A stretch of 64,000 nucleotides of DNA from an uncultured Nitrososphaeraceae archaeon (lineage in GTDB: Archaea > Thermoproteota > Nitrososphaeria > Nitrososphaerales > Nitrososphaeraceae). Position numbers and translations under genes: made by a program. Location: assembly GCA_963825865.1 (NCBI GenBank), contig CAWGVG010000009.1, positions 1 to 64,000 of the forward strand, written 5' to 3'. The notes under the pieces were generated by a model. The model was not told where the DNA came from and did not search any database. It saw only the letters and a list, made by a program, of their open reading frames with translations. This document shows, piece by piece, positions 13,899-41,818 of this stretch. Positions within the stretch are counted from its first letter, which is position 1. Every line of letters starts with the position of its first letter.

Positions 13899-14159
13899 TT
13901 AATTTATTAAAAGTGACAAATTACATTCTTGGCAAAAGTAGCAAAGCCCATTAAAATCAGATGATAATGACATTATATCATAACAGCGAGGACATTCGAT
14001 TTCCTGTTCTAAATCTTGCAGCATTTTCTTTTCTCCCTTGTTATCCTCAATTTCTTTCACATTTTGCAAAGGATTAAGATCGACTTGTTGTGGTTGCTGT
14101 TGCTGCTGATGCTGCTGCTGCAATAGCAATTTCTTGCTCCTCATTTTTTTGACTAGCAC
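13899..14159 (-). CDS. Small zinc-ribbon protein, divergent from radA
   Basis: CPRC...CQEC; poly-Q. Confidence 0.65.
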   Translation of the reverse strand: MLVKKMRSKKLLLQQQHQQQQQPQQVDLNPLQNVKEIEDNKGEKKMLQDLEQEIECPRCYDIMSLSSDFNGLCYFCQECNLSLLIN

Positions 14160-14349
14160 TGATTGGCTTGAGTTACTATTATGTCCTGAATCACTATAAG
14201 GGGAGGAAGTCTCTACTTGTATTGTACCTAATTAGAATGGTATATTACGATCAATGTACCTCTCTCCCCCTGTACCCAAGTAGCTTTCTTAGTTATATGC
14301 AAGACAAAGTCAATGCAATATCAAGAGGTCAGATAAAATCACGTCTCAT

Positions 14350-15450
14350 GTCAGTGAATTGCGGCTAGAGGACCTACCTGATGTTGAACCATATTTGATA
14401 AATAAACTAAAAAGAGCTGGAATACAATCAGTTTTAGACCTAGCCGCATCAATCCCCATTGAACTTGCAGGAGGAGGAGATTATATCGATGATGACAACT
14501 CCGCAATTACAGCTGACATAGAGACAATATCACAACTTGTAGGAAAGGCCAAAAAGGCCCTTGTAGGTTTCGGCGTACTTAATAAAGAGTTCTGTACAGC
14601 TGAAGAGTTTCTTGAAAAAAGGAACAATCTCGTCAGATTTACAACAGGATCTGTAAACCTGGATGCATTTTTGAAAGGTGGAATAGAATCACAAGCAATT
14701 ACAGAGATTGCTGGGGAATTTGGTTCAGGAAAAAGTCAGTTATGTCATACTTTATGCGTTACTGCTGCTGGCTAATAAGGAGAAAGGAAAACGAGTGGGA
14801 GGAGCAGTAGCAGGAGACCTTAACAGGAATAATAATAATAATATAATATTCATAGATACAGAAAACACCTTCAGGCCAGAGAGAATTCACCAGATAGCTG
14901 AAGGCAGAGGTCTCGAGCCAGAGGAAATAATGAAAAGAGTGTTTGTATGCAAAATATACAATAGTGCTCATCTTGAAGCTATAATAAAAAATCTTGGCAA
15001 GTCTATAGAACATTACAAAGCCAAGCTTGTCATAATTGATAGCATTATCTCGCTTCACAGAGCAGAATTTCCAGGAAGGGAAACTCTGGCTGAAAGACAG
15101 CAGAGGCTCAATGTTATGCTACATAGACTGATAAGACTAGCAGAAATTTACAATGTCGCAGTAGTTCTTACAAATCAAGTTCAGTCACAACCAGATAATT
15201 TCTTTGGCGGTATTGGTGGTGGAAACGATCCAACGTGCGGCTGGTGGTAATATAATGGGACATGCTTCTACATACAGGATTTTTCTTAGAAAGGCTGGAC
15301 GTAATAGAATAGCAATAATGCTTGATTCGCCACACCACGCATACGGTCAAGCTAAGTTTACAATAAGTGAAAAAGGAGTCCAAGATACTGACGAGGAGGA
15401 GAAAGCAAGATCAGGGAAAGCAGTAACAATACAGTGAGTCTGGCTGGTAG
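14350..15450 (+). CDS. radA: RadA/Rad51-family recombinase (frameshifted; start uncertain)
   Basis: HhH N-terminus [20 protein letters not shown]; FxxA motif FCTA; Walker A GEFGSGKS; [12 protein letters not shown]; Walker B LVIIDS; [12 protein letters not shown]; [17 protein letters not shown]. Confidence 0.92.
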
Positions 15451-15473: not shown

Positions 15474-17360
15474 ATGACCCCTGGAGACAACAACATATTA
15501 CGGACTATTCCTCAGGAAAAAGATTATCCTCTTGATCCAAATACAATTCCCGTACCACCATCATCCCAGCAGCCAAGACCGCAGGTAACATTATCCGAAT
15601 TAATTCCAGGGAAATATGTCTCTACTAGCGCAAGAGTAGTTTATTTAAAGACCATTGAAAGACAGGATGCTCTTGGGAGTAAGGTGCTATTTTCTGGAAT
15701 ATTAGAGGATTCTACTTTCAAAGTTCCTTTTATTAGTCACAGGATTTCATATCCTTTGATAAGGAACTCTGTCTACAAATTCAACTCTGCTTATGTACAT
15801 GAATTTTCGTCCTCAGATAAATCGCTTTTACTAGTAATAACAGAGCACACAAAGATAGACTCCAAGAATATTGAAGAATACAGAGAATTTATTTGGAGTC
15901 CCAAGATTGAGTCAATAAAAAGGCCAGTTAGAAACCTTACTTTGCAGGGATTAATCACAACAGTACATAGTAATTCTGGGCTAGTCAAAAGATGTAACAA
16001 ATGCAAATCAATAATCTATGATTCGTGTCCCAGTAAATGTCCTGAAGAGGAAGGGTGGGGTTGGGACCTCAGAGTGTCCTCAAGGCTCTACGACGGTTCA
16101 GGCGCTATTAAGATGGTTTTGACAAAGGATATTGCATCAAAGGTCTTACACATGAATTTAGCAGAGTTAATTTTACTTGCAACAACAACATCGCACAGTA
16201 GTATTCCAGCCCAAAGATACAGCAACGGCCAAAACCATCACCAATTTCAACCACCATCTGTATTTACGATAAGGATACCGGATAGCATCGATATAATAGA
16301 GGCAGTAACAGAGAACAATATTTTGTCGTCAACTTATAGAAGCAGTGAAAAGCTCATAGTAACTGATGGACGAAACCTTGTCTACTTTCCACCAAATGAG
16401 GAGAATGAGCAAAAGTTCTCAGAATCTGTCAAGAGGCCATTAAAGGCATCTGATGTAGAGGATAAAAAGATAATCAAAAGGCTGGTTGAAAAAGCACTTG
16501 ACATTAGCCTAAGAAAAGTTACTGGCAAAAGGATGATGCAGGGGATTTATCTCCTTGAAGAGCCTATTTCCCTTTATAGATGTGAAAGGGCGAAACTATA
16601 CCTTGGATTTTCAGTTAAGTTGAATATAAAAGAAAAGGAAAAAGAACAACAAGATAACGCGGCAGTTGTAACAACGACGACTGCTGTAATTGAGACTACT
16701 CCACAAGCCCATGTTAGAGAAAGCGTGCTTGATTATATTAAAATGAGAAGGGAGCGTGGTGCATCTGCAAATGCCATTATACGTAACTTGTTAACATATA
16801 GAAATAAAGTGGTTGTGGCGCCATCTGGAAATTACGGTAGTATTGTTGATGTAATCATAAGAAAGGCAGAAACCCAACTCGTTTCAGACACCGACAAGAG
16901 AAACTTGGTAGAATTCTGGAAACAGATCTATGGTATTGACATATCATCTGACGAAATTCCACTACTAAAAGTAAAGATGATGAATTCTGAGAATACCTTT
17001 ACCTATCCCCCAAGTATGTGCTTTTTTGGGAGCGAATCTCTAATTATTCAAGCAGACGTTCAAAAATTCATTGAGAGCAAAAAGTCCACACTCAAAGCAA
17101 GAATGGATGACACTATCAAAAAGGCAATCATAACACAAGATCTGACGATTGGACCTACAAAACTAGAATTTGATGAGGAACAGAATGGTTCACAAGGGCA
17201 GCGGCAGCCAGGTGACATTCAAAGCCACATTCTGCAAGAAATAAGACAGAAATTATTTGGGAGGAACGTTACAGCTAGAGGTTCAATCATGTTTGTTCAT
17301 GATGAGCTTTGGTTCTTTCCATACCAATTGAGAGCTTTCATAGAATGTGGATGGTCATGA
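15474..17360 (+). CDS. RPA-like OB-fold/Zn-ribbon protein with inserted Argonaute-like L1-PAZ region
   Basis: OB1 (SELIPGKYVSTSARV...GILEDST); OB2 with SGLVKRCNKC...C...DLRVSSRLYDGSG; LYLGFSVKL...ESVLDYI...LVEFWKQIYGIDISSDEIPLLKVK...YPPSMC; C-terminal IRQKLFGRNVTARG. Confidence 0.75.
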   Translation: MTPGDNNILRTIPQEKDYPLDPNTIPVPPSSQQPRPQVTLSELIPGKYVSTSARVVYLKTIERQDALGSKVLFSGILEDSTFKVPFISHRISYPLIRNSVYKFNSAYVHEFSSSDKSLLLVITEHTKIDSKNIEEYREFIWSPKIESIKRPVRNLTLQGLITTVHSNSGLVKRCNKCKSIIYDSCPSKCPEEEGWGWDLRVSSRLYDGSGAIKMVLTKDIASKVLHMNLAELILLATTTSHSSIPAQRYSNGQNHHQFQPPSVFTIRIPDSIDIIEAVTENNILSSTYRSSEKLIVTDGRNLVYFPPNEENEQKFSESVKRPLKASDVEDKKIIKRLVEKALDISLRKVTGKRMMQGIYLLEEPISLYRCERAKLYLGFSVKLNIKEKEKEQQDNAAVVTTTTAVIETTPQAHVRESVLDYIKMRRERGASANAIIRNLLTYRNKVVVAPSGNYGSIVDVIIRKAETQLVSDTDKRNLVEFWKQIYGIDISSDEIPLLKVKMMNSENTFTYPPSMCFFGSESLIIQADVQKFIESKKSTLKARMDDTIKKAIITQDLTIGPTKLEFDEEQNGSQGQRQPGDIQSHILQEIRQKLFGRNVTARGSIMFVHDELWFFPYQLRAFIECGWS

Positions 17361-17367
17361 CGTAAGA

Positions 17368-18203
17368 ATGAGCATTTATACAATCAATGAACCAAACAAT
17401 AATAATAATCAAATCTCCTTTGAAATGTATTCGGCCTTAGAGCAATTTAATGAACAGAGAAACACCTTAAAGATGACTACTGGATCTGCAGACCTTGACT
17501 CGTTAATAGATGGTATACAAGAAGGGTTGTTCTATCTATTTTATGGCAACAACCATGCAGTACAGGATTCCCTTGTGTACAGATTCCTTGTGAACTGTGT
17601 ACTGCCAATAAAACAAAAACATGGTTTTGAATCAATGGGAGTTTGTTTTAATAATGCAGAATATTACAATAGTAGAAAGACATCTCTTAGCCCAGAAAAG
17701 TTAGGAGTTGCAGCAAAATGTGCTAGCATCGATCCAAAGATTGTTTTTAAGAACTTGTACATCCATACATGCATATAATGAGCAGCAACAGCTATTGGTT
17801 GCAGAACAGGTTGCTGACCTAATAGAATCTAACAAGGACATCAAGTCTGCTAGTAGTTAATAGATTAACAAGATTTTTCAAAGAATCAAAAAAGAAAATG
17901 GAAACCGCCAATGTCTTGAAACAGGTTGTAGGAATAATTTGCAAGGCTTGTGCTAAGAACAAAGTAGCACTAGTATGCACTGGTGATTCAAATTTAACAA
18001 GTAAAGGTGTAATACCAAGGCCCACGGGGGGAATATACCTAAAGCATGCAGCAAATGTGATTGTACATATTAAAGAGTATCCTAACAGTACTGCTGCCAT
18101 TCCTTCATTTAAGGCAACATTAGTTAAACATCAGTATATGAAAACTCCAAAATCAGCAATTCTTTACCTTAGAAAGTGTGGAGGAATGATGCTTTTAGAT
18201 TGA
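17368..18203 (+). CDS. RadA-like protein lacking Walker A (frameshifted)
   Basis: MTTGSADLDSLIDGIQEGLFYLFYG followed by no GKS/T; C-terminal GGIYLKHAANVIVHI...ATLVKH. Confidence 0.75.
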
Positions 18204-18221: not shown

Positions 18222-18594
18222 ATAGGCAGAATAACGCCATCATTTCGTCAGTTATATGAAGAAACGATATCAGAGCTAAGAATGGAGCTGCAGGCAGCAC
18301 TTGTAGATTTAGGTCATAAGAGTGCATTTGAATTGCTGTTAAAGGAAGCCTGGAATCCAGAACAGGCTGCTATGGGTAATTCTACACTTACCAACGGTTA
18401 GTGACAAACTAAATGTCATGGCATCAATACACAATAGAAAGCTTATTGCAGTATTGGCAAAGGAATTGAAGGAAAAGGATGTTGAGATAGAGGAACTCAA
18501 GCAGAATATCACGTTACTTCAAGATAAATTAAATGACATACACATGGAAATGAAACCCAAGGGAGACAAGCAACTACAGCAACAGCAACAGTAG
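18222..18594 (+). CDS. arCOG07300-like small PolB2-associated protein (ATA start, one frameshift)
   Basis: (M)GRITPSFRQLYEETISEL...AFELLLKEAW...; directly upstream of polB; the copy at 40451-40822 is intact. Confidence 0.7.
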
Positions 18595-18625: not shown

Positions 18626-21073
18626 ATGTCAAGTTGTACCGGCTGGCTCTTTGATATTTCTATAGAACATAATCAAGCTGTCCTGTGGATAAAAACTATC
18701 GATAGACAGATCCTTAAGCTAATAGACACTTATCAGCCAAGGTTCTACATATTACCTAAAAATGAAACTGATGGATTACATCTTTTCCAAATATTATCTC
18801 AACAACCCATAGTGGCTAAAGTTAGATGGGAGGAGGACAAGCTTACAAATCTTTTTGATCATGATTGCACTACAACAAAAAAGAAAAAACTAATTTGTGT
18901 TTATCCACAATCCACACAGTATTATGCGCCCATTCTAAAAATATTAGAAAAAGACCAGCGAGTCAAGCAATTGTTCAATACAGATCTCTCACATATCCAG
19001 CAATATTTGTTTACCAAATTGAGAATTGAACCTACAAGCAAAGTTGAAGTCGAGTATGAGGGTACTAAGTTACTTAGAATAAGCAAAATTGATGATGAAC
19101 AAGAGGTATCTCCACCGCCCTTTTCATTACTATATTTTGACGTTCAGACATTTTCAGGAAAATTTACTTTTGAAGATCCGATTAGAATGATAAAGGTTAG
19201 GTATGAAATTGGTGATGCAAAGGAATGGAACATGTTTCATTCCAAAGCAATGCAGAAAACATCATCCTTCAGGATTTCTCTAATTACGTGCTAGATAAAG
19301 ATCCAGACATTATTGTTTGCATAGAGCGAATCTGAGAGTAAAATATTTCATTACCTATTTACACGAATAAAGAAACTTGGGCTTGACTTGCAACTTGGGA
19401 GAGAGGGCTCAGTAAAGGATCTCATGAATTTAAAGCGCCCAATGTCCAGAGTGGATCAAAGGTAGAATTTGCATTGAAAGCAGATGATGGTAATGGTGGG
19501 ATTAATAGACAACATTCAACATTTGATAATTTTGGGCTTGCAGGATTAATAGAAAGATCAAAGTTCGGTTTCGTTCCTTTGAGAATAGCTGCAAGATATG
19601 GTATAAACCGTCTAATAGATAGCAGAAACTGTTATCAATTAATCCAGAGAGGCTTTGTTATTTCAAAGAATAATCATTCTGGTGGAAGCAAGCAATAGCA
19701 ACAACAACCATGAACGCATCAGGACTTTAGAGGAACTAGTCTCAAGGGATAAGGGCGGTATGATAATTTCTCCTCAGGTAGGCCTGCATGAAAATGTTGT
19801 ATCACTAGATTATGACAGCGAATACGCAAATCTAATAGTGAATCACAATCTAAGCTATGAAACTGTTACTTTACAGCAAGATGGAGTAGTCGTAGTACTA
19901 CAACAATCCAATGACAACGAAGAAAGGCTTACTGCCAACAGTAGTGGAGAAATTTCTCAAAAGACGGCTCTATTTCAAGAGACTATTAAAAGAACTATTC
20001 AAAAGAGAGCATGGAGTCTCTCTGGTGCGAACAGCGTGTCAATTCACTAAAGAACATACTTGTTTGTCTTTATGGTACAACTGGTTCCCTTTGGAATAGA
20101 TATGGTAATGTGCTTGTATTTGAGGAAATTAACAAGATATCTAGGGAAATATTGATAAAAACAAAGGATATTGTTCAGCAGTTAGGCTATGAGCTGGTAT
20201 ATGCTGATACAGACTCGGTATTTATTAAAAAGAAAGATGCCGCTACTGCTGACACAGACCACAAGCAGTTATGAACAAGTTATAGATATGCTGTGCAAAG
20301 AAACAGGCCTTTCAATCTCTATTGATTATAATTATAAGTTTTTAGTTCTATTACCTTGGAAGCTGACGAAAACATAGAGGCACTCAAGCATTACTATGGG
20401 ATTACGCAACAAGGAGAACTAGTTGTTAGAGGTATAGAAATTAGGAGACATGATATTCCAAACTTTATAAAACAATTTCAAACTGAATTGCTATACACGC
20501 TTTTTGATTGTAAAGATTCAGCTGAGGTAGATAAGCAAAGGATATGAAAATGGTCTTTTATTGGTTACCAAGGCAATAGATAAAATTATGACAGGTGAAG
20601 ACTTTCACCAAGAGGATCTTGTAATCTCCAAGTTGCTTGGACAGGATATAGAAAAATACAAGAGCTTATTTCCTCATGTGTCCGCTGCCATTCAATTATT
20701 AAGCAATAAAGAGAGGAGGTAAATACCCAACAAAAGGCGACACTATCCAGTATATCTATACAAATTCAAAACACAACAATCCTCTTTGCAGAGTTGTACC
20801 TTTAGAGATTTTACAAAAAGAGGAGGAAAAAGGAAAGACAGCAAGGAGAATGGTAAAACTCTGAATTATGACAAGGATAAGTACAGAGAAATGATACTTG
20901 ATGCTGCAGAAACTGTTCTAGGTTATTTCGGCTTTAATAGGACTGTTTATGGAAATCCTGGGAACGATAGAAAGAAAAAGAGAAAATGGTATGAGGAATT
21001 GTATGAAGAAAGAACAAAAGATATTCAAGCAGAGATGATGATGGAAAAACAACAACATGGTAAAGCCCAATAA
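18626..21073 (+). CDS. polB: Family B DNA polymerase, PolB2/G2-like (multiple frameshifts)
   Basis: GWLFDI N-terminus; DKGGMIISPQVGLHENV; motif A LDYDSEYANLI; motif B KNILVCLYG; motif C YADTDS; KHYYG, RGIEIRRHD, YDKDKY. Confidence 0.9.
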
Positions 21074-38040: not shown

Positions 38041-40419
38041 TTACAACAGCTCCGCTTGGATATCTCTTGTTCTTTCTTTATGCAATTCCTCATACCATTT
38101 TCTTTTTTTCTTTCTATTATTCCTAGGATTTTCATAAACAGTCCTATCAAAGCCAAAATACCCTAGAACAGTTTCTGCGGCATCAAGTATCATTTCTCTG
38201 TACTTATCCTTGTCATAATTCAGAGTTCTCTTTTCCTCCTTACCGTCTTTTTCTCCATTTTGCAAAATCTCTAAAGGTACAACTCTGCAAAGGGGATTTT
38301 TGTGTTGTGAGTTTGTGTAAATATACTGAATAGTATCACCTTTTGTTGGATACTTTCCTCCTTTATTGTTTAATTGATAGCATTGAATAGCAGCAGAGAC
38401 ATGAGGAAATAAGCTCTTGTACTTTTGCATATACTGTCCAAGCAACTTGGAGATTACAAGATCCTCTTGGCGAATCTCTTCACCTGTCATAATTTTATCT
38501 ATTGCCTTGGTAACCAGTAAAAGAGCATTTTGATATCCTTTGTTTACCACTTCAACTGAATCTTTGCAATCAAAAAGTGTGTATAGCAATTCAGTTTGAA
38601 ATTCTTTTATAAAGTTTGGCCTGACTCTTTGGATAATCTATCTACAACTTGTAGATAATCGCTTATTGTTTTTGTAGTTGTACCAGGCAGCAGCAGCAGC
38701 AGCATCTTTCCTTTTAATAAATACAGAGTCTGTATCTGCATATACCAGCTCATAGCCTAACTGCTGAACAATATCCTTTGTTTTTATCAATATTTCCCTA
38801 GATATTTTGTTTATTTCCTCAAAAGCAAGCACATTACAATATCTATTCCAGAGAGAACCAGTTGCACCATAAAGACAAACTAGTATGTTCTTTAGTGAGT
38901 CAACACGCTGTTGACACCAGAAAGACTCTATGCTCTCCTTTGGTAGTTCTTTTAATAGTCTCTTAAAATAGAGCCGTCTTTTGAGAAATTTTTCCACTAC
39001 TGTTGGCAGTAAGCCTTTCTTTTCGTTGTCATTAGATTGTTGTACCTATGACTACTCCTAACCCTTGTTCTTGCTCCAAGGTAACAGTTTCATAGCTTAT
39101 TGTGATTTACTATTAGATTTGCGTATTCGCTGTCATAATCTAATGCGACAACGTTTTCATGCAGGCCTACCTGAGGGGAAATTATCATACCGCCCTTATC
39201 CCTTGATACCAGTTCCTCTAAAGTCCTAATGCGTTCATGGTTGTTATTATTGTTCTTGCTTCCACCAGAATGATTATTCTTTGAAATAACAAAGCCTCTC
39301 TGGATTAATTCATAACAGTTTCTGCTATCTATTAGACGGTTTATACCATACCTTGAAGCCATCCCCAAAGGAACGAAACCGAACCTTAATCTCTCTATTA
39401 ATCCTGCAAATCCAAAACCATTAAATGCTGGGTGTTGTTGTTGTCTATTGATCCCACCACTACGATCACTGCTTTCAAGGCAAATTCTGCCTTTGATCCA
39501 CTCTGATAATGGGCGCTTTAAATTCATGAAATCGTCTGCTGAGACCTCTCTACCTAGTTGCAAGTTAAGCCCAAGTCTCTTTATTCGTGTAAATAGGTAA
39601 TGAAATATTTTACTCTCAAACTCTCCCACGCAAACAATAATGTCTGGATCTTTATCAATCACATAATTAGAGAAATCCTGAATGATGGTATTTTCTGCAT
39701 TACTTTGGAATGAAACATGTTCTCCATTCTCCTTTGAATCACCGCTTTCATACCTAACCTTTATCATTCTAATCGGATCATCAAAAGTAAATTTTCCTGA
39801 AAATGTCTGAACGTCAAAATATAGTAATGAAAAGGGCGGTGGAGATACCTCTTGTTCATCATCAATTTTGTTTATTTTAAGTACCTTAGTACCATCGGTA
39901 CTCGACTTTAACTTTGCTTGTGGGTTCAATTTTCAATTTGGTAAACAAATATTGCTGGATATGAGAGAGATCTGTATTGAACAATTGCTTGACTCTCTGG
40001 TCTTTTTCTAATATTTTTAGAATGGGCGTATAATACTGCGTGGATTGTGGGTAAACACAAATTATACCAATTAACATTAATTCGCTAACACTTTGCTAAT
40101 ATTTTGAGTTGAAATACGTCGATAGTTGTTAGCGAACTTTTGTTAACTGGTATAGTTTTTTCTTTTTTGTTGTAGTATTATCATGATCAAAAAGATTTGT
40201 AAGCTTGTCCTCCTCCCATCTAACTTTGGCCACTATGGTTTGTTGAGATAATATTTGGAAAAGATGTAATCCATCAGATTCATTTCTGGGTAATATGTAG
40301 AACCTTGGCTGATAAGTGTCTATTAGCTTAAGGATCTGTCTATCGATAGTTTTTATCCACAGGACAGCTTGATTATGTTCTATAGAAATATCAAAAAGCC
40401 AGCCGGTACAACTTGACAT
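38041..40419 (-). pseudogene. polB: Second copy of the PolB2-like polymerase, disrupted
   Basis: Near-identical motifs to 18626-21073; 88-bp MITE insertion; ~150-bp deletion removing KHYYG/RGIEIRRHD. Confidence 0.88.
40065..40152. mobile_element. 88-bp IS630-type MITE inserted in polB copy 2
   Basis: 26-bp TIRs matching 22/26; TA duplicated at 40063-40064 and 40153-40154; empty site visible in copy 1. Confidence 0.88.
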
Positions 40420-40450
40420 TGTTATTATATTATGGCTCCAATTATTCCTA

Positions 40451-40822
40451 CTACTGTTGCTGTTGCTGTAGTTGCTTGTCTCCCTTGGGTTTCATTTCCA
40501 TGTGTATGTCATTTAATTTATCTTGAAGTAACGTGATATCCTGCTTGAGTTCCTCTATTTCAACATCCTTTTCCTTTAATTCCTTTGCCAATACTGCAAT
40601 AAGCTTTCTATTGTGTATTGATGCCATGACATTTAATTTGTCACTAACCGTGGGTAAGGTAGAATTACCCATAGCAGCCTGTTCTGGATTCCAGGCTTCC
40701 TTTAACAGCAAGTCAAATGCACTTTTATGGCCTAAATCTACAAGCGCTGCCTGGAGCTCTGTTCTTAGCTCTGATATCGTTTCCTCATATAGTTGACGGA
40801 ATGATGGCGTTATTCTACCTAT
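40451..40822 (-). CDS. arCOG07300-like small protein, copy 2 (ATA start, 123 aa)
   Basis: ATA GGT AGA ATA ACG CCA TCA TTC CGT, open to the stop at 40451. Confidence 0.7.
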   Translation of the reverse strand: MGRITPSFRQLYEETISELRTELQAALVDLGHKSAFDLLLKEAWNPEQAAMGNSTLPTVSDKLNVMASIHNRKLIAVLAKELKEKDVEIEELKQDITLLQDKLNDIHMEMKPKGDKQLQQQQQ

Positions 40823-40859
40823 ATGTCAACACCCCAAATCAATTTTTTTGGTTCAGAAT

Positions 40860-41405
40860 TCAATCTAAAAGTGTTATTCCTCCACTAAACTTTCTAAGGT
40901 AAAGAACTGTTGATTTGGGAGTTTTCATATACTGATGTTTAACCAATGTCGCTTTAAATGAAGGAATGGCAGCAGTACTGTTAGGATATTCTTTAATATG
41001 TACAATCACATTTGCAGCATGTTTTAGGTATATTCCCCCTATGGGCCTTGGTATTACACCTTTGCTTGTCAAATTCGCATCACCAGTGCATACTAGTGCT
41101 ACTTTACCCTTAGCACAAGCCTTGCAAACTATCCCTACAACCTGCTTCAGGACATTGGCAGTTTCCATTTTCTTTTTTGAGTCTTAAAATCTTGTTAATC
41201 TATTAATTACTAGCAGACTTGATATCCTTGTTAGATTCTATTAGGTCAGCAACCTGTTCTGCAACCAATAGCTGTTGCTGGTCGTTATATGCTGTATGTA
41301 TATACAAGTTCTTAAAAACAATCTTTGGATTTATGCTAGCACATTTTGCTGCAACTCCTAACTTTTCTGGGCTAAGAGACGTCTTTCTACTGTTGTAATA
41401 ATCTA
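40860..41405 (-). pseudogene. 5'-truncated copy of the RadA-like gene
   Basis: Matches 17660-18203 (YYNSRKTSLSPEKLGVAAKC...ATLVKHQYMKTPKS); N-terminal third absent. Confidence 0.8.
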
Positions 41406-41818
41406 CATCCAATTTTTCTATACAAGCCTTTTGTTGAGAACAGTTTATTTCCTTTCAAACCCGGCGAAGATTTGCTCGTAAAGATAGGTAACCACAAGCT
41501 AAGTGTTACAAAACTAATAGATTAAAAATACAGTACAATAGTGATAAATAAAAGGCAAGCTAGTTAATAAACGATAACAATAAAAATTTGCAAAATATAC
41601 AATACTTCAATTGCCTTGTGCTAACATGATTACGGAAAAACTAAGTTGGAGTTAGTTGATAGTGTAAGAAAAATCATTTATAATTAATTTGATTTTAATG
41701 AGCCCTTTTAAGAAACAAAACTATATTTTGTGAAGACACATAGTGTTCTCGTTTACTTATAAGCATTCATTAGTATCATATGAATTCGTAAATAAGATGT
41801 TGTGATATAATTATTATT

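Follow-up and report, generated by a model that had tools for sequence, protein, structure and literature searches.

Prokaryotic Argonaute biology has been framed around the PIWI domain, and the short systems keep MID-PIWI and outsource an N-lobe that lacks PAZ. In the consulted parts of two papers on archaeal translesion synthesis, iRadA, PPB2 and PolB2 are described as a damage-inducible 'mutasome' unit with a damage-tolerance role (PMC11791011, PMC4104785), DUF72 genes are among those found around PolB2 (PMC11791011), and some TACK members are described as having a family B polymerase with an intact DTD motif (Timinskas et al. 2025, PMC11791011; Makarova et al. 2014, PMC4104785); the Escherichia coli Pol V mutasome is given there as UmuD'2C-RecA-ATP (PMC11791011). 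We analysed 64,000 nucleotides (nt) of DNA from an uncultured Nitrososphaeraceae archaeon (assembly GCA_963825865.1, contig CAWGVG010000009.1, positions 1 to 64,000 of the forward strand), referred to here as the window. It contains a gene whose product is predicted to carry an Argonaute N-lobe inside an RPA-type OB fold and which stands in an operon with iRadA, PPB2 and PolB2. This placement points to an unrecognised job for the Argonaute module in DNA repair.

Domain organisation of the protein

The gene and the parts of its product are listed below by window coordinates and by amino acid (aa) position.

15474..17360, + strand: the RPA::Argonaute-N-lobe gene, one open reading frame (ORF) of 628 codons, giving 628 aa
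15615..15866, + strand: OB fold 1 (aa 48-131), from the AlphaFold2 strands, a profile match in the Protein Data Bank (PDB) to the Ta0387 OB domain (E 1.4e-5) and the hhalign alignment to RPA
15927..16187, + strand: N-terminal part of OB fold 2 (aa 152-238) with strands 1-3, the Zn ribbon and two helices, from AlphaFold2, hhalign and conservation
15993-16040, + strand: Zn-ribbon ligands C174, C177, C185 and C189, from conservation and the RPA alignment
16203..17219, + strand: inserted Argonaute N-lobe-like module (aa 244-582) with an N/L1-like sheet and long helix, the invariant GF378-379, PAZ and a helical L2-like part, from Foldseek, the PADLOC pAgo models (profile positions 70-273) and Atlas
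16857..17030, + strand: PAZ core (aa 462-519) with invariant W482, E494 and P496 and conserved F481, Y486 and T510-Y511-P512-P513-S514, from Pfam and conservation
17220..17336, + strand: C-terminal segment (aa 583-621), which resumes the RPA alignment and is predicted to supply strands 4-5 of OB fold 2, from hhalign with shuffles and the AlphaFold2 hairpin

The NCBIfam replication factor A / SSB models matched aa 37-238 with E values of 2.7e-16 and 3.1e-16, and the scores did not reach the equivalog cut-offs (59.8 bits for a cut-off of 556, 59.4 for 447 and 37.7 for 353). An alignment of 228 family members (effective number 47), used for conservation and for hhalign, was compared with four haloarchaeal RPAs, which are plasmid genes annotated 'Single-stranded DNA binding protein'; aa 37-243 were aligned with residues 166-366 of the 427 of RPA (probability 99.0%, E 5.5e-18). 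The N-terminal part was also aligned with one RPA from Thermoproteota (E 4.7e-4), and Foldseek with the full-length AlphaFold model matched the Pyrococcus abyssi RPA 8oej_A (E 6.5e-10 over 223 columns) and also 8aaj_A, with a probability of 1.00. In the Zn ribbon, CxxC...CxxxC/H, the residues C174, C177 and C185 are conserved in 100% of the members and the fourth ligand is a cysteine in 60% and a histidine in 24% (84% together). This ribbon is aligned with that of RPA inside the OB fold, and both the OB homology and the Zn ribbon of an RPA were thus found. A viral fold library returned nothing but matches of OB/SSB type, such as baculovirus LEF-3.

On the haloarchaeal plasmids (L142-L145), the RPA gene is followed, with an overlap of 4 nt, by a 'hypothetical protein' gene of 1737-1854 nt (~580-617 aa).

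Comparison of the C-terminus of the family with RPA showed that the alignment resumes there. The third alternative hhalign alignment paired aa 583-606 with RPA 371-394, a stretch that begins four residues past the end of the N-terminal part at RPA 366, and a profile of aa 578-621 alone had the same stretch of RPA as its best match (score 25.4, E 5.7e-4). This score was attained by 0 of 300 RPA alignments with shuffled columns (mean 11.4, standard deviation 2.3, maximum 24.8). When the last 50-54 aa were scanned by themselves with NCBIfam, no RPA model was matched. The order of the strands in the AlphaFold2 model is that of an OB fold, with b1-b3, the helix, the insert and then b4-b5. Eukaryotic RPA70 chains were aligned by Foldseek over 640-641 columns with the query of 628 residues and, since there are more columns than residues in the query, the alignment must join the N-terminal OB folds with the C-terminus by way of a long gap. 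Co-linearity with RPA on either side thus indicates an insert of about 340 residues (aa 244-582) that separates RPA position 366 from position 371. In the Zn-ribbon OB fold, this is the loop that leads from the helix following strand 3 into strand 4. A complex prediction of aa 140-240 with the C-terminal hairpin (aa 586-628) scored 0.26, for a mark of 0.32, and mutual-information covariation over the 228 sequences paired the C-terminal columns with the N-terminal part of OB fold 2 in 6 of the 30 top pairs, for an expectation of 18%.

The full-length AlphaFold2 model, based on a 43-sequence alignment, had a mean predicted local distance difference test score (pLDDT) of 82.4 and a predicted template modelling score of 0.62. 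Its layout comprises an OB fold at 48-131, strands, Zn ribbon and two helices at 152-238, a disordered linker at 241-257, a large mixed alpha/beta module at 262-594 and a terminal beta-hairpin at 598-608 and 611-621 (pLDDT ~91-93). The results of the Foldseek search with this model showed matches to PIWI and Argonaute chains over 330-440 columns, with E values from 2.9e-9 to ~1e-7, a probability of 1.00 and sequence identities of 10-15%. The chains matched were those of Hili (7yfx_A, E 2.9e-9), Siwi (5guh_A), MILI, human Ago2, KmAgo (8xhv_A, root-mean-square deviation 6.9 over 330 columns) and PfAgo (1u04). A model of the insert only was used for a fold search with its confident N/L1 part, and the top 50 matches listed were prokaryotic Argonaute N-L1, AfAgo-N (N-L1-L2) and APAZ-partner chains, plus a few entries with generic titles. 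The predicted fold of the insert is that of an N-L1-PAZ-L2 lobe.

At the sequence level, the support that PADLOC and Atlas give to an Argonaute lobe was weak but consistent. In 4 of 9 members, the PADLOC full-length pAgo models were matched through the N-terminal part of the profile (positions 50-273, best E 1.4e-5), and the Atlas language-model features placed aa 258-597 (window 16245-17264) among PAZ-bearing clusters, with a top score of 0.96. The nearest of these clusters are eukaryotic and carry PAZ, Dicer_platform and DUF4708 (C18orf63-like), with scores of 0.93-0.96 and 146-188 shared features, and clusters with ArgoL1, PAZ and ArgoN scored 0.87-0.89. Pfam PAZ (PF02170), the sole Pfam match of the window protein, gave a sub-threshold match at aa 462-519 (profile 46-102 of 123, E 1.5e-4); among 43 aligned relatives, 30 had the same domain at E <= 0.1, the best of them with 1.7e-5, and a precomputed match was present on 3 of the 120 homologues listed. 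A profile search of the PDB gave the PAZ domain of Piwi-like 2 with an E value of 0.38, which is not significant by itself, and a single-sequence PDB search gave no match.

Apart from the Zn ligands, the residues conserved in 100% of the 228 members are all located in L1-PAZ (G378, F379, G429, P450, G452, W482, E494 and P496). The aromatic residues F481 (89%), Y486 (78%, with histidine in 18%) and Y511 (84%, with phenylalanine in 12%) are also conserved, as are P512-P513-S514. The residues F481, W482, Y486 and Y511 fall in stretches aligned with the PAZ of Piwi-like 2 (the alignment with an E value of 0.38), and they are candidate equivalents of the residues that line the 3'-end pocket in solved PAZ domains. 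This conservation of L1-PAZ speaks for selection on the PAZ module and against a relic.

Two other identities of the insert were rejected: a 'PAZ' that is a mere third OB fold, because the Argonaute matches extend far beyond one PAZ domain, and a platform-PAZ of the Dicer type, because no Dicer chain is present in the 50 PDB matches listed for the full-length and the insert-only model (in Atlas, Dicer_platform is found on 20% of one cluster).

Sequence comparison and structure prediction together indicate that the protein is a chimera, in which an RPA-type OB pair carries an Argonaute N-lobe of ~340 aa in OB fold 2. The earlier note on this DNA, made from its letters, had likened aa ~35-236 to a Zn-finger RPA, had seen the missing OB segment reappear at aa ~590 and had proposed that ~350 aa are inserted in OB fold 2, and the alignments to RPA agree with each of these points. 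Its recognition of an Argonaute L1-PAZ pattern at aa ~375-520 is borne out by the Foldseek matches, by the conservation and by the PAZ that it expected from Pfam, obtained at a score below the gathering score. The extent that it gave to the lobe has to be revised, from L1-PAZ to an entire N-lobe (N-L1-PAZ-L2-like).

Genes of the operon

The gene is a member of a five-gene operon, an extended PolB2 mutasome operon, in the order RadA paralogue, RPA::Argonaute-lobe gene, iRadA, PPB2 and PolB2, a setting that the earlier note had not recognised. The other four genes are located in the window as follows.

14338..15437, + strand: RadA paralogue with its Walker A present (GEFGSGKS), in three frame pieces in the assembly (Pfam Rad51, E 4.5e-18, 3.2e-37 and 1.6e-11; tblastn to an intact relative)
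17347..18203, + strand: iRadA, a RadA homologue that lacks Walker A and is split up in the assembly (first piece matched by Pfam Rad51 with E 1.4e-4; tblastn)
18222..18552, + strand: PPB2-like small protein, ~124 aa in intact relatives (operon position compared with that in PMC11791011)
18620..21040, + strand: PolB2-type family B DNA polymerase, in pieces (Pfam DNA_pol_B; tblastn; DTD motif retained in P0272, an intact relative)

In an intact relative (L027), the five genes overlap or are at most 6 nt apart. Its RadA of 348 aa scored 310.9 bits with PRK04301, above the cut-off of 259, and its RPA::Argonaute-lobe gene (L027:9205-11043) encodes 613 aa. The genes that follow encode a RadA homologue of 308 aa from which Walker A is missing, a protein of 124 aa that matches no Pfam or NCBIfam family and a 735-aa family B polymerase (PF00136, E 9.2e-35, motif YADTDA). 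These last three genes fit the published PolB2 operon iRadA-PPB2-PolB2; the polymerase is a candidate PolB2 by its family B match, its DTD motif and the operon, and the name PPB2 (arCOG07300 in the published operon) was taken from the operon position of an ORF that is 64-87% identical among relatives.

Gene order was compared at 19 loci from 19 Nitrososphaeraceae genomes and at 80 metagenome loci with identities down to ~31%. In the genomes, iRadA was found downstream at 18 of the 19 loci and RadA upstream at 16 of the 17 with sufficient flank, one locus (L013) being the exception for both. In the metagenomes, RadA was found upstream at 55 of 59 testable loci, with a Walker A in 44/44 full-length copies, and a RadA-like gene was found downstream at 67 of 69 testable loci, with the Walker A motif GxxxxGK[ST] in 0/50 full-length copies; a family B polymerase followed within 2.6 kb in 31 of 33. 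The operon RadA paralogue, which keeps Walker A, is predicted to be ATPase-competent, and iRadA, which has lost it, to be ATPase-dead. Comparison of the RadA copies showed that the one in the operon is additional and more divergent (311-346 bits, compared with ~400-424 for the other copies). No PPB2-like gene was detected by BLAST in the distant branches among the metagenome loci, where the iRadA ORF is longer, possibly through fusion with PPB2.

In one distant branch (L037, L046, L047, L049 and L064), a further RadA-like gene without Walker A was observed after PolB2, and the iRadA ORF of ~380 aa may be such a fusion. DUF72-like genes recur near the metagenome operon loci. Orc1/Cdc6-like P-loop genes, so read from their motifs, were seen near the operon at 11 of the 80 loci (L053, L054, L056, L062, L064, L065, L074, L077, L099, L100 and L115), and a large helicase-like gene, also named from motifs, at four (L048, L053, L057 and L062). 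In the window, a divergent ORF of 86 aa (13899-14159, - strand) lies upstream of the operon and has a glutamine run, two CxxC pairs and no Pfam match.

State of the assembly and further copies

All four operon neighbours of the gene are broken in the window by 1-nt frame shifts, and the gene itself carries one such change.

17331/17332, + strand: insertion of 1 nt, which changes the reading frame of the final codons, seen by comparison with the second copy in the assembly and with contigs of four soil runs

This insertion is located five codons before the native stop and changes the usual C-terminus from ...QLxLS to ...QLRAFIECGWS. The ORF had been described as uninterrupted; it is indeed a single ORF, but one with an indel. 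Contigs (90-99% alike) from four independent soil runs were compared: the indels at 15418, 17331/2, 17770 and 17846 are absent in several of these runs, and those at 19693 and 20529 in one or two. In the RadA gene, the soil contigs of the 4 runs carry an additional C behind 15418, and in iRadA they have 1-nt differences at 17770 and 17846. The frame breaks are most likely assembly errors or private to the strain, not decay of the operon.

The assembly of the window probably carries many single-base errors; its completeness is 81.8%. A second five-gene copy of the operon is present on another contig of the same assembly (C10:64800-71600; L002, L004), with ~95% protein identity and many more frame shifts and stops, 11 of the stops being inside the match. 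A partial PolB2 operon was also observed in the window (38053-41409, - strand), with a truncated iRadA, an intact 124-aa PPB2 (40496-40822), PolB2 in pieces and no RadA or RPA::Argonaute-lobe gene upstream. The genome of the window has 12 RadA-like and 22 family B polymerase matches over its contigs, unusually high numbers, which suggests repeated duplication of PolB2-type modules.

Distribution and search for a PIWI partner

A word-indexed search gave at least 876 clusters (90% identity) at E <= 1e-3 from 7999 scored candidates. When representatives at 50% identity were searched exhaustively, 352 matches were obtained, including full-length proteins of equal length and layout with identities down to 27-37%. 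The 120 homologues listed are 67-93% identical to the protein and bear the organism names of Nitrososphaeraceae bins, and every named homologue is labelled 'hypothetical protein' across all naming sources. One metagenome scan gave 240 loci. Scans of genome contigs for related loci with the single protein gave no match, and a search of sequencing runs gave no RNA run among the matches listed, the best DNA runs holding at most 0.20 of the words.

The genome tallies, which include the unpublished genomes G376 and G460, showed that the gene is present in 37 of 201 Nitrososphaeraceae genomes and in 9 of 18 genera, often as several copies or fragments; of 300 further genomes sampled from the phylum, none has it. 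The pattern of PPB2 is nearly equal: it was found in 32 of the 201 genomes, and 29 of the 31 PPB2-positive genomes other than that of the window (G000) also carry the gene. By their source labels, the distant members were binned as Nitrososphaerota, Bathyarchaeota (on a contig of 1.4 Mb), Thermoprotei and, in one bin, 'Methylomirabilota'. The protein from this last, bacterial bin (P0279, in the cluster of P0134) may be a case of mis-binning or of transfer. A gene fusion made by the assembly was rejected, because the architecture recurs in the 240 metagenome stretches and the 37 genomes.

The 628-aa protein leaves no room for MID or PIWI. Pfam Piwi was found neither in the window, as had been noted before, nor in its genome (81.8% complete), nor in five further carrier genomes that are 97-99% complete, whereas the positive-control genomes with Argonautes were detected in both searches. 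A stand-alone MID-PIWI partner, which the earlier note had wished to see sought, was thus found by Pfam Piwi in none of the six carrier genomes.

Proposed function and alternatives

By analogy with the recombinase-dependent Pol V mutasome (PMC11791011), we propose, with a probability of about 60%, that the protein is a dedicated subunit that binds single-stranded DNA and 3' ends in PolB2-dependent damage tolerance. Binding of nucleic acid, specificity for the 3' end and contact with the other operon proteins are what we infer from this analogy. The OB folds would hold the single-stranded template at a gap or a stalled primer, and the PAZ pocket would capture the primer by its free 3' end, or an invading strand by its own. 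Such capture would mark the primer-template junction and would position or limit the filament of the RadA paralogue, and the 3' end would be handed to the iRadA-PPB2-PolB2 complex. A more tentative extension, to which we give about one chance in three, is that the Argonaute N-lobe, as part of an RPA, has a task independent of guides and their targets, reading a free 3' end at a primer-template junction or recombination intermediate and delivering it to a recombinase-dependent translesion polymerase. In its boldest form, the lobe would dock on the inactivated exonuclease domain of PolB2, which presumably has an RNase-H-like fold, and the two together would again enclose the primer end in a bilobed clamp, as in an Argonaute.

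Several points weigh against the proposed function or the architecture on which it is built. The PolB2 operons of other archaea work without the protein, which is therefore not essential to the polymerase. The C-terminal profile, when compared with the single RPA from Thermoproteota, was aligned at the expected place with a score of 12.2, which did not exceed the shuffles (mean 11.9), and that the hairpin at 598-621 completes OB fold 2 is predicted from topology and co-linearity. The AlphaFold model of the insert only, based on 18 closer sequences, was poor (pLDDT 59.6, and below 50 for the PAZ part). The PF02170 score of the window protein is 22.1 bits, below the gathering score of 28.8, and PAZ was found in only 2 of 10 members of the distant branches (Pfam, E <= 1). 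The words 'PAZ', 'RPA', 'Argonaute' and 'OB-fold' do not occur in the main text of PMC11791011, nor 'RPA' in that of PMC4104785. In the consulted literature linking iRadA, PPB2, PolB2 or Dpo2 with PAZ or RPA, no description of such a gene was found, the matches being a general review of H. volcanii and another review, each with a single mention; the supplementary neighbourhood tables of the PolB2 papers may list it.

The chief competitor, which we give about a third of the weight of the proposed function, is that the lobe is a scaffold that docks the RPA part to PolB2, iRadA or the RadA filament, with a PAZ pocket that binds no nucleic-acid end. It draws on the matches of the insert-only model to the PAZ-less AfAgo-N and the SPARDA/SPARSA APAZ, on the docking of N-L1-L2/APAZ proteins onto MID-PIWI in short Argonaute systems, on the consistent presence of the operon partners and on the weak detection of PAZ in distant branches. 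However, conservation is highest in the PAZ region (100% for W482, E494 and P496, with the aromatic residues 481, 486 and 511), and this fits a ligand pocket better than a relic. It is quite improbable that the end recognised is that of an RNA (a primer, R-loop RNA or a small RNA), so that the protein would couple RNA-DNA hybrids or RNA primers to recombination and PolB2 synthesis: although RNA-guided Argonautes of the PIWI clade and of eukaryotes give the best structural matches and the nearest Atlas neighbours are eukaryotic PAZ proteins, the DNA-guided prokaryotic KmAgo, PfAgo and TtAgo match about equally well and every operon partner is a protein of DNA transactions.

We see very little chance that the protein serves guide-dependent defence as the N-lobe half of a split Argonaute whose MID-PIWI half is encoded elsewhere or has diverged too far. 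Split Argonautes do exist (AfAgo with AfAgo-N, short pAgo with APAZ) and the phyletic distribution is patchy and multi-copy, but the Pfam Piwi search was negative in all six carriers with its controls detected, the conserved neighbours are RadA, iRadA, PPB2 and PolB2, near which Orc1/Cdc6-like and DUF72 genes occur but no effector of the nuclease, TIR or Sir2 kind, the phage collection gave no match and the plasmids gave haloarchaeal RPA only. Just as little weight is given to the main, replicative RPA of the cell with a lineage-specific decoration. The protein is the only multi-OB match to RPA models found in its own genome, where a search with the OB part gave no further paralogue; yet a housekeeping role does not agree with its presence in 37 of 201 genomes of the family and 0 of 300 others of the phylum, with the several copies and fragments of some genomes or with its constant place in a PolB2 operon, which is accessory. 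On these counts, it is unlikely that a PIWI partner is hidden, that the protein is a housekeeping RPA or that the gene is an artefact of assembly.

If the PAZ pocket reads DNA 3' ends as we propose, it would give a translesion polymerase a new route to its primer and would be a new cellular use of an Argonaute module, with a PIWI-independent, repair-related role for a PAZ lobe in archaea. The abundance of the family in soil ammonia-oxidising archaea, with its hundreds of clusters and metagenome loci, indicates that this biology is widespread.

Comparison with known systems

Comparison with haloarchaeal RPA of the PRK07218 type (~425 aa) showed the same succession of an OB fold and a Zn-ribbon OB fold, co-linear on both sides of the insert. 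The window protein differs from it by the ~340-aa insert, by the lack of the N-terminal OB folds of RPA, by a score of 59 bits for cut-offs of 447-556 and by its neighbours, which are those of a PolB2 operon rather than an RPA-associated protein. With the N-lobe of long Argonaute and PIWI proteins (N-L1-PAZ-L2), it shares a predicted fold over 330-440 columns and weak matches to PAZ and pAgo profiles, whereas it has no MID or PIWI, embeds the lobe in an OB fold and is 10-15% identical. AfAgo-N and the APAZ proteins, as described in the consulted part of PMC10954474, are also Argonaute N-lobes encoded apart from PIWI, and their structures were matched (8olj, 8old, 8pvv, 9qbp and 8in8); they are PAZ-less, always accompanied by MID-PIWI and often by an effector, while the window protein keeps PAZ and has no PIWI partner. 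It is thus the opposite piece, a PAZ-bearing N-lobe without PIWI that is built into a predicted single-stranded DNA-binding protein and tied to a DNA-damage-tolerance operon.

The eukaryotic DUF4708/C18orf63-like proteins, compared by language-model features and Pfam only, are the nearest language-model neighbours of the insert (0.93-0.96), and part of each cluster has PAZ. Pfam DUF4708 was matched by no member examined, the 10 from distant branches included, and the function of the DUF4708 family was not found characterised in the consulted literature; the lobe may be related to these uncharacterised PAZ-bearing proteins. The E. coli Pol V mutasome, in the part of its description consulted, is similar in outline, as a translesion polymerase that relies on a recombinase and a single-stranded DNA context, and differs in that its proteins are unrelated (a Y-family polymerase and the bacterial RecA and SSB). 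To our knowledge, it has no PAZ-like 3'-end module.

With the PolB2 mutasome operon, the locus shares the order iRadA, small PPB2-like protein and family B polymerase and the DUF72 and Orc1/Cdc6-like neighbours (consulted parts of PMC11791011 and PMC4104785). The locus differs by two extra upstream genes, those of a Walker-A-positive RadA paralogue and of the RPA::Argonaute-lobe protein, which are mentioned in the main text of neither paper. The proposed function would add these two unrecognised components to a PolB2 mutasome that has so far been modelled as three proteins.

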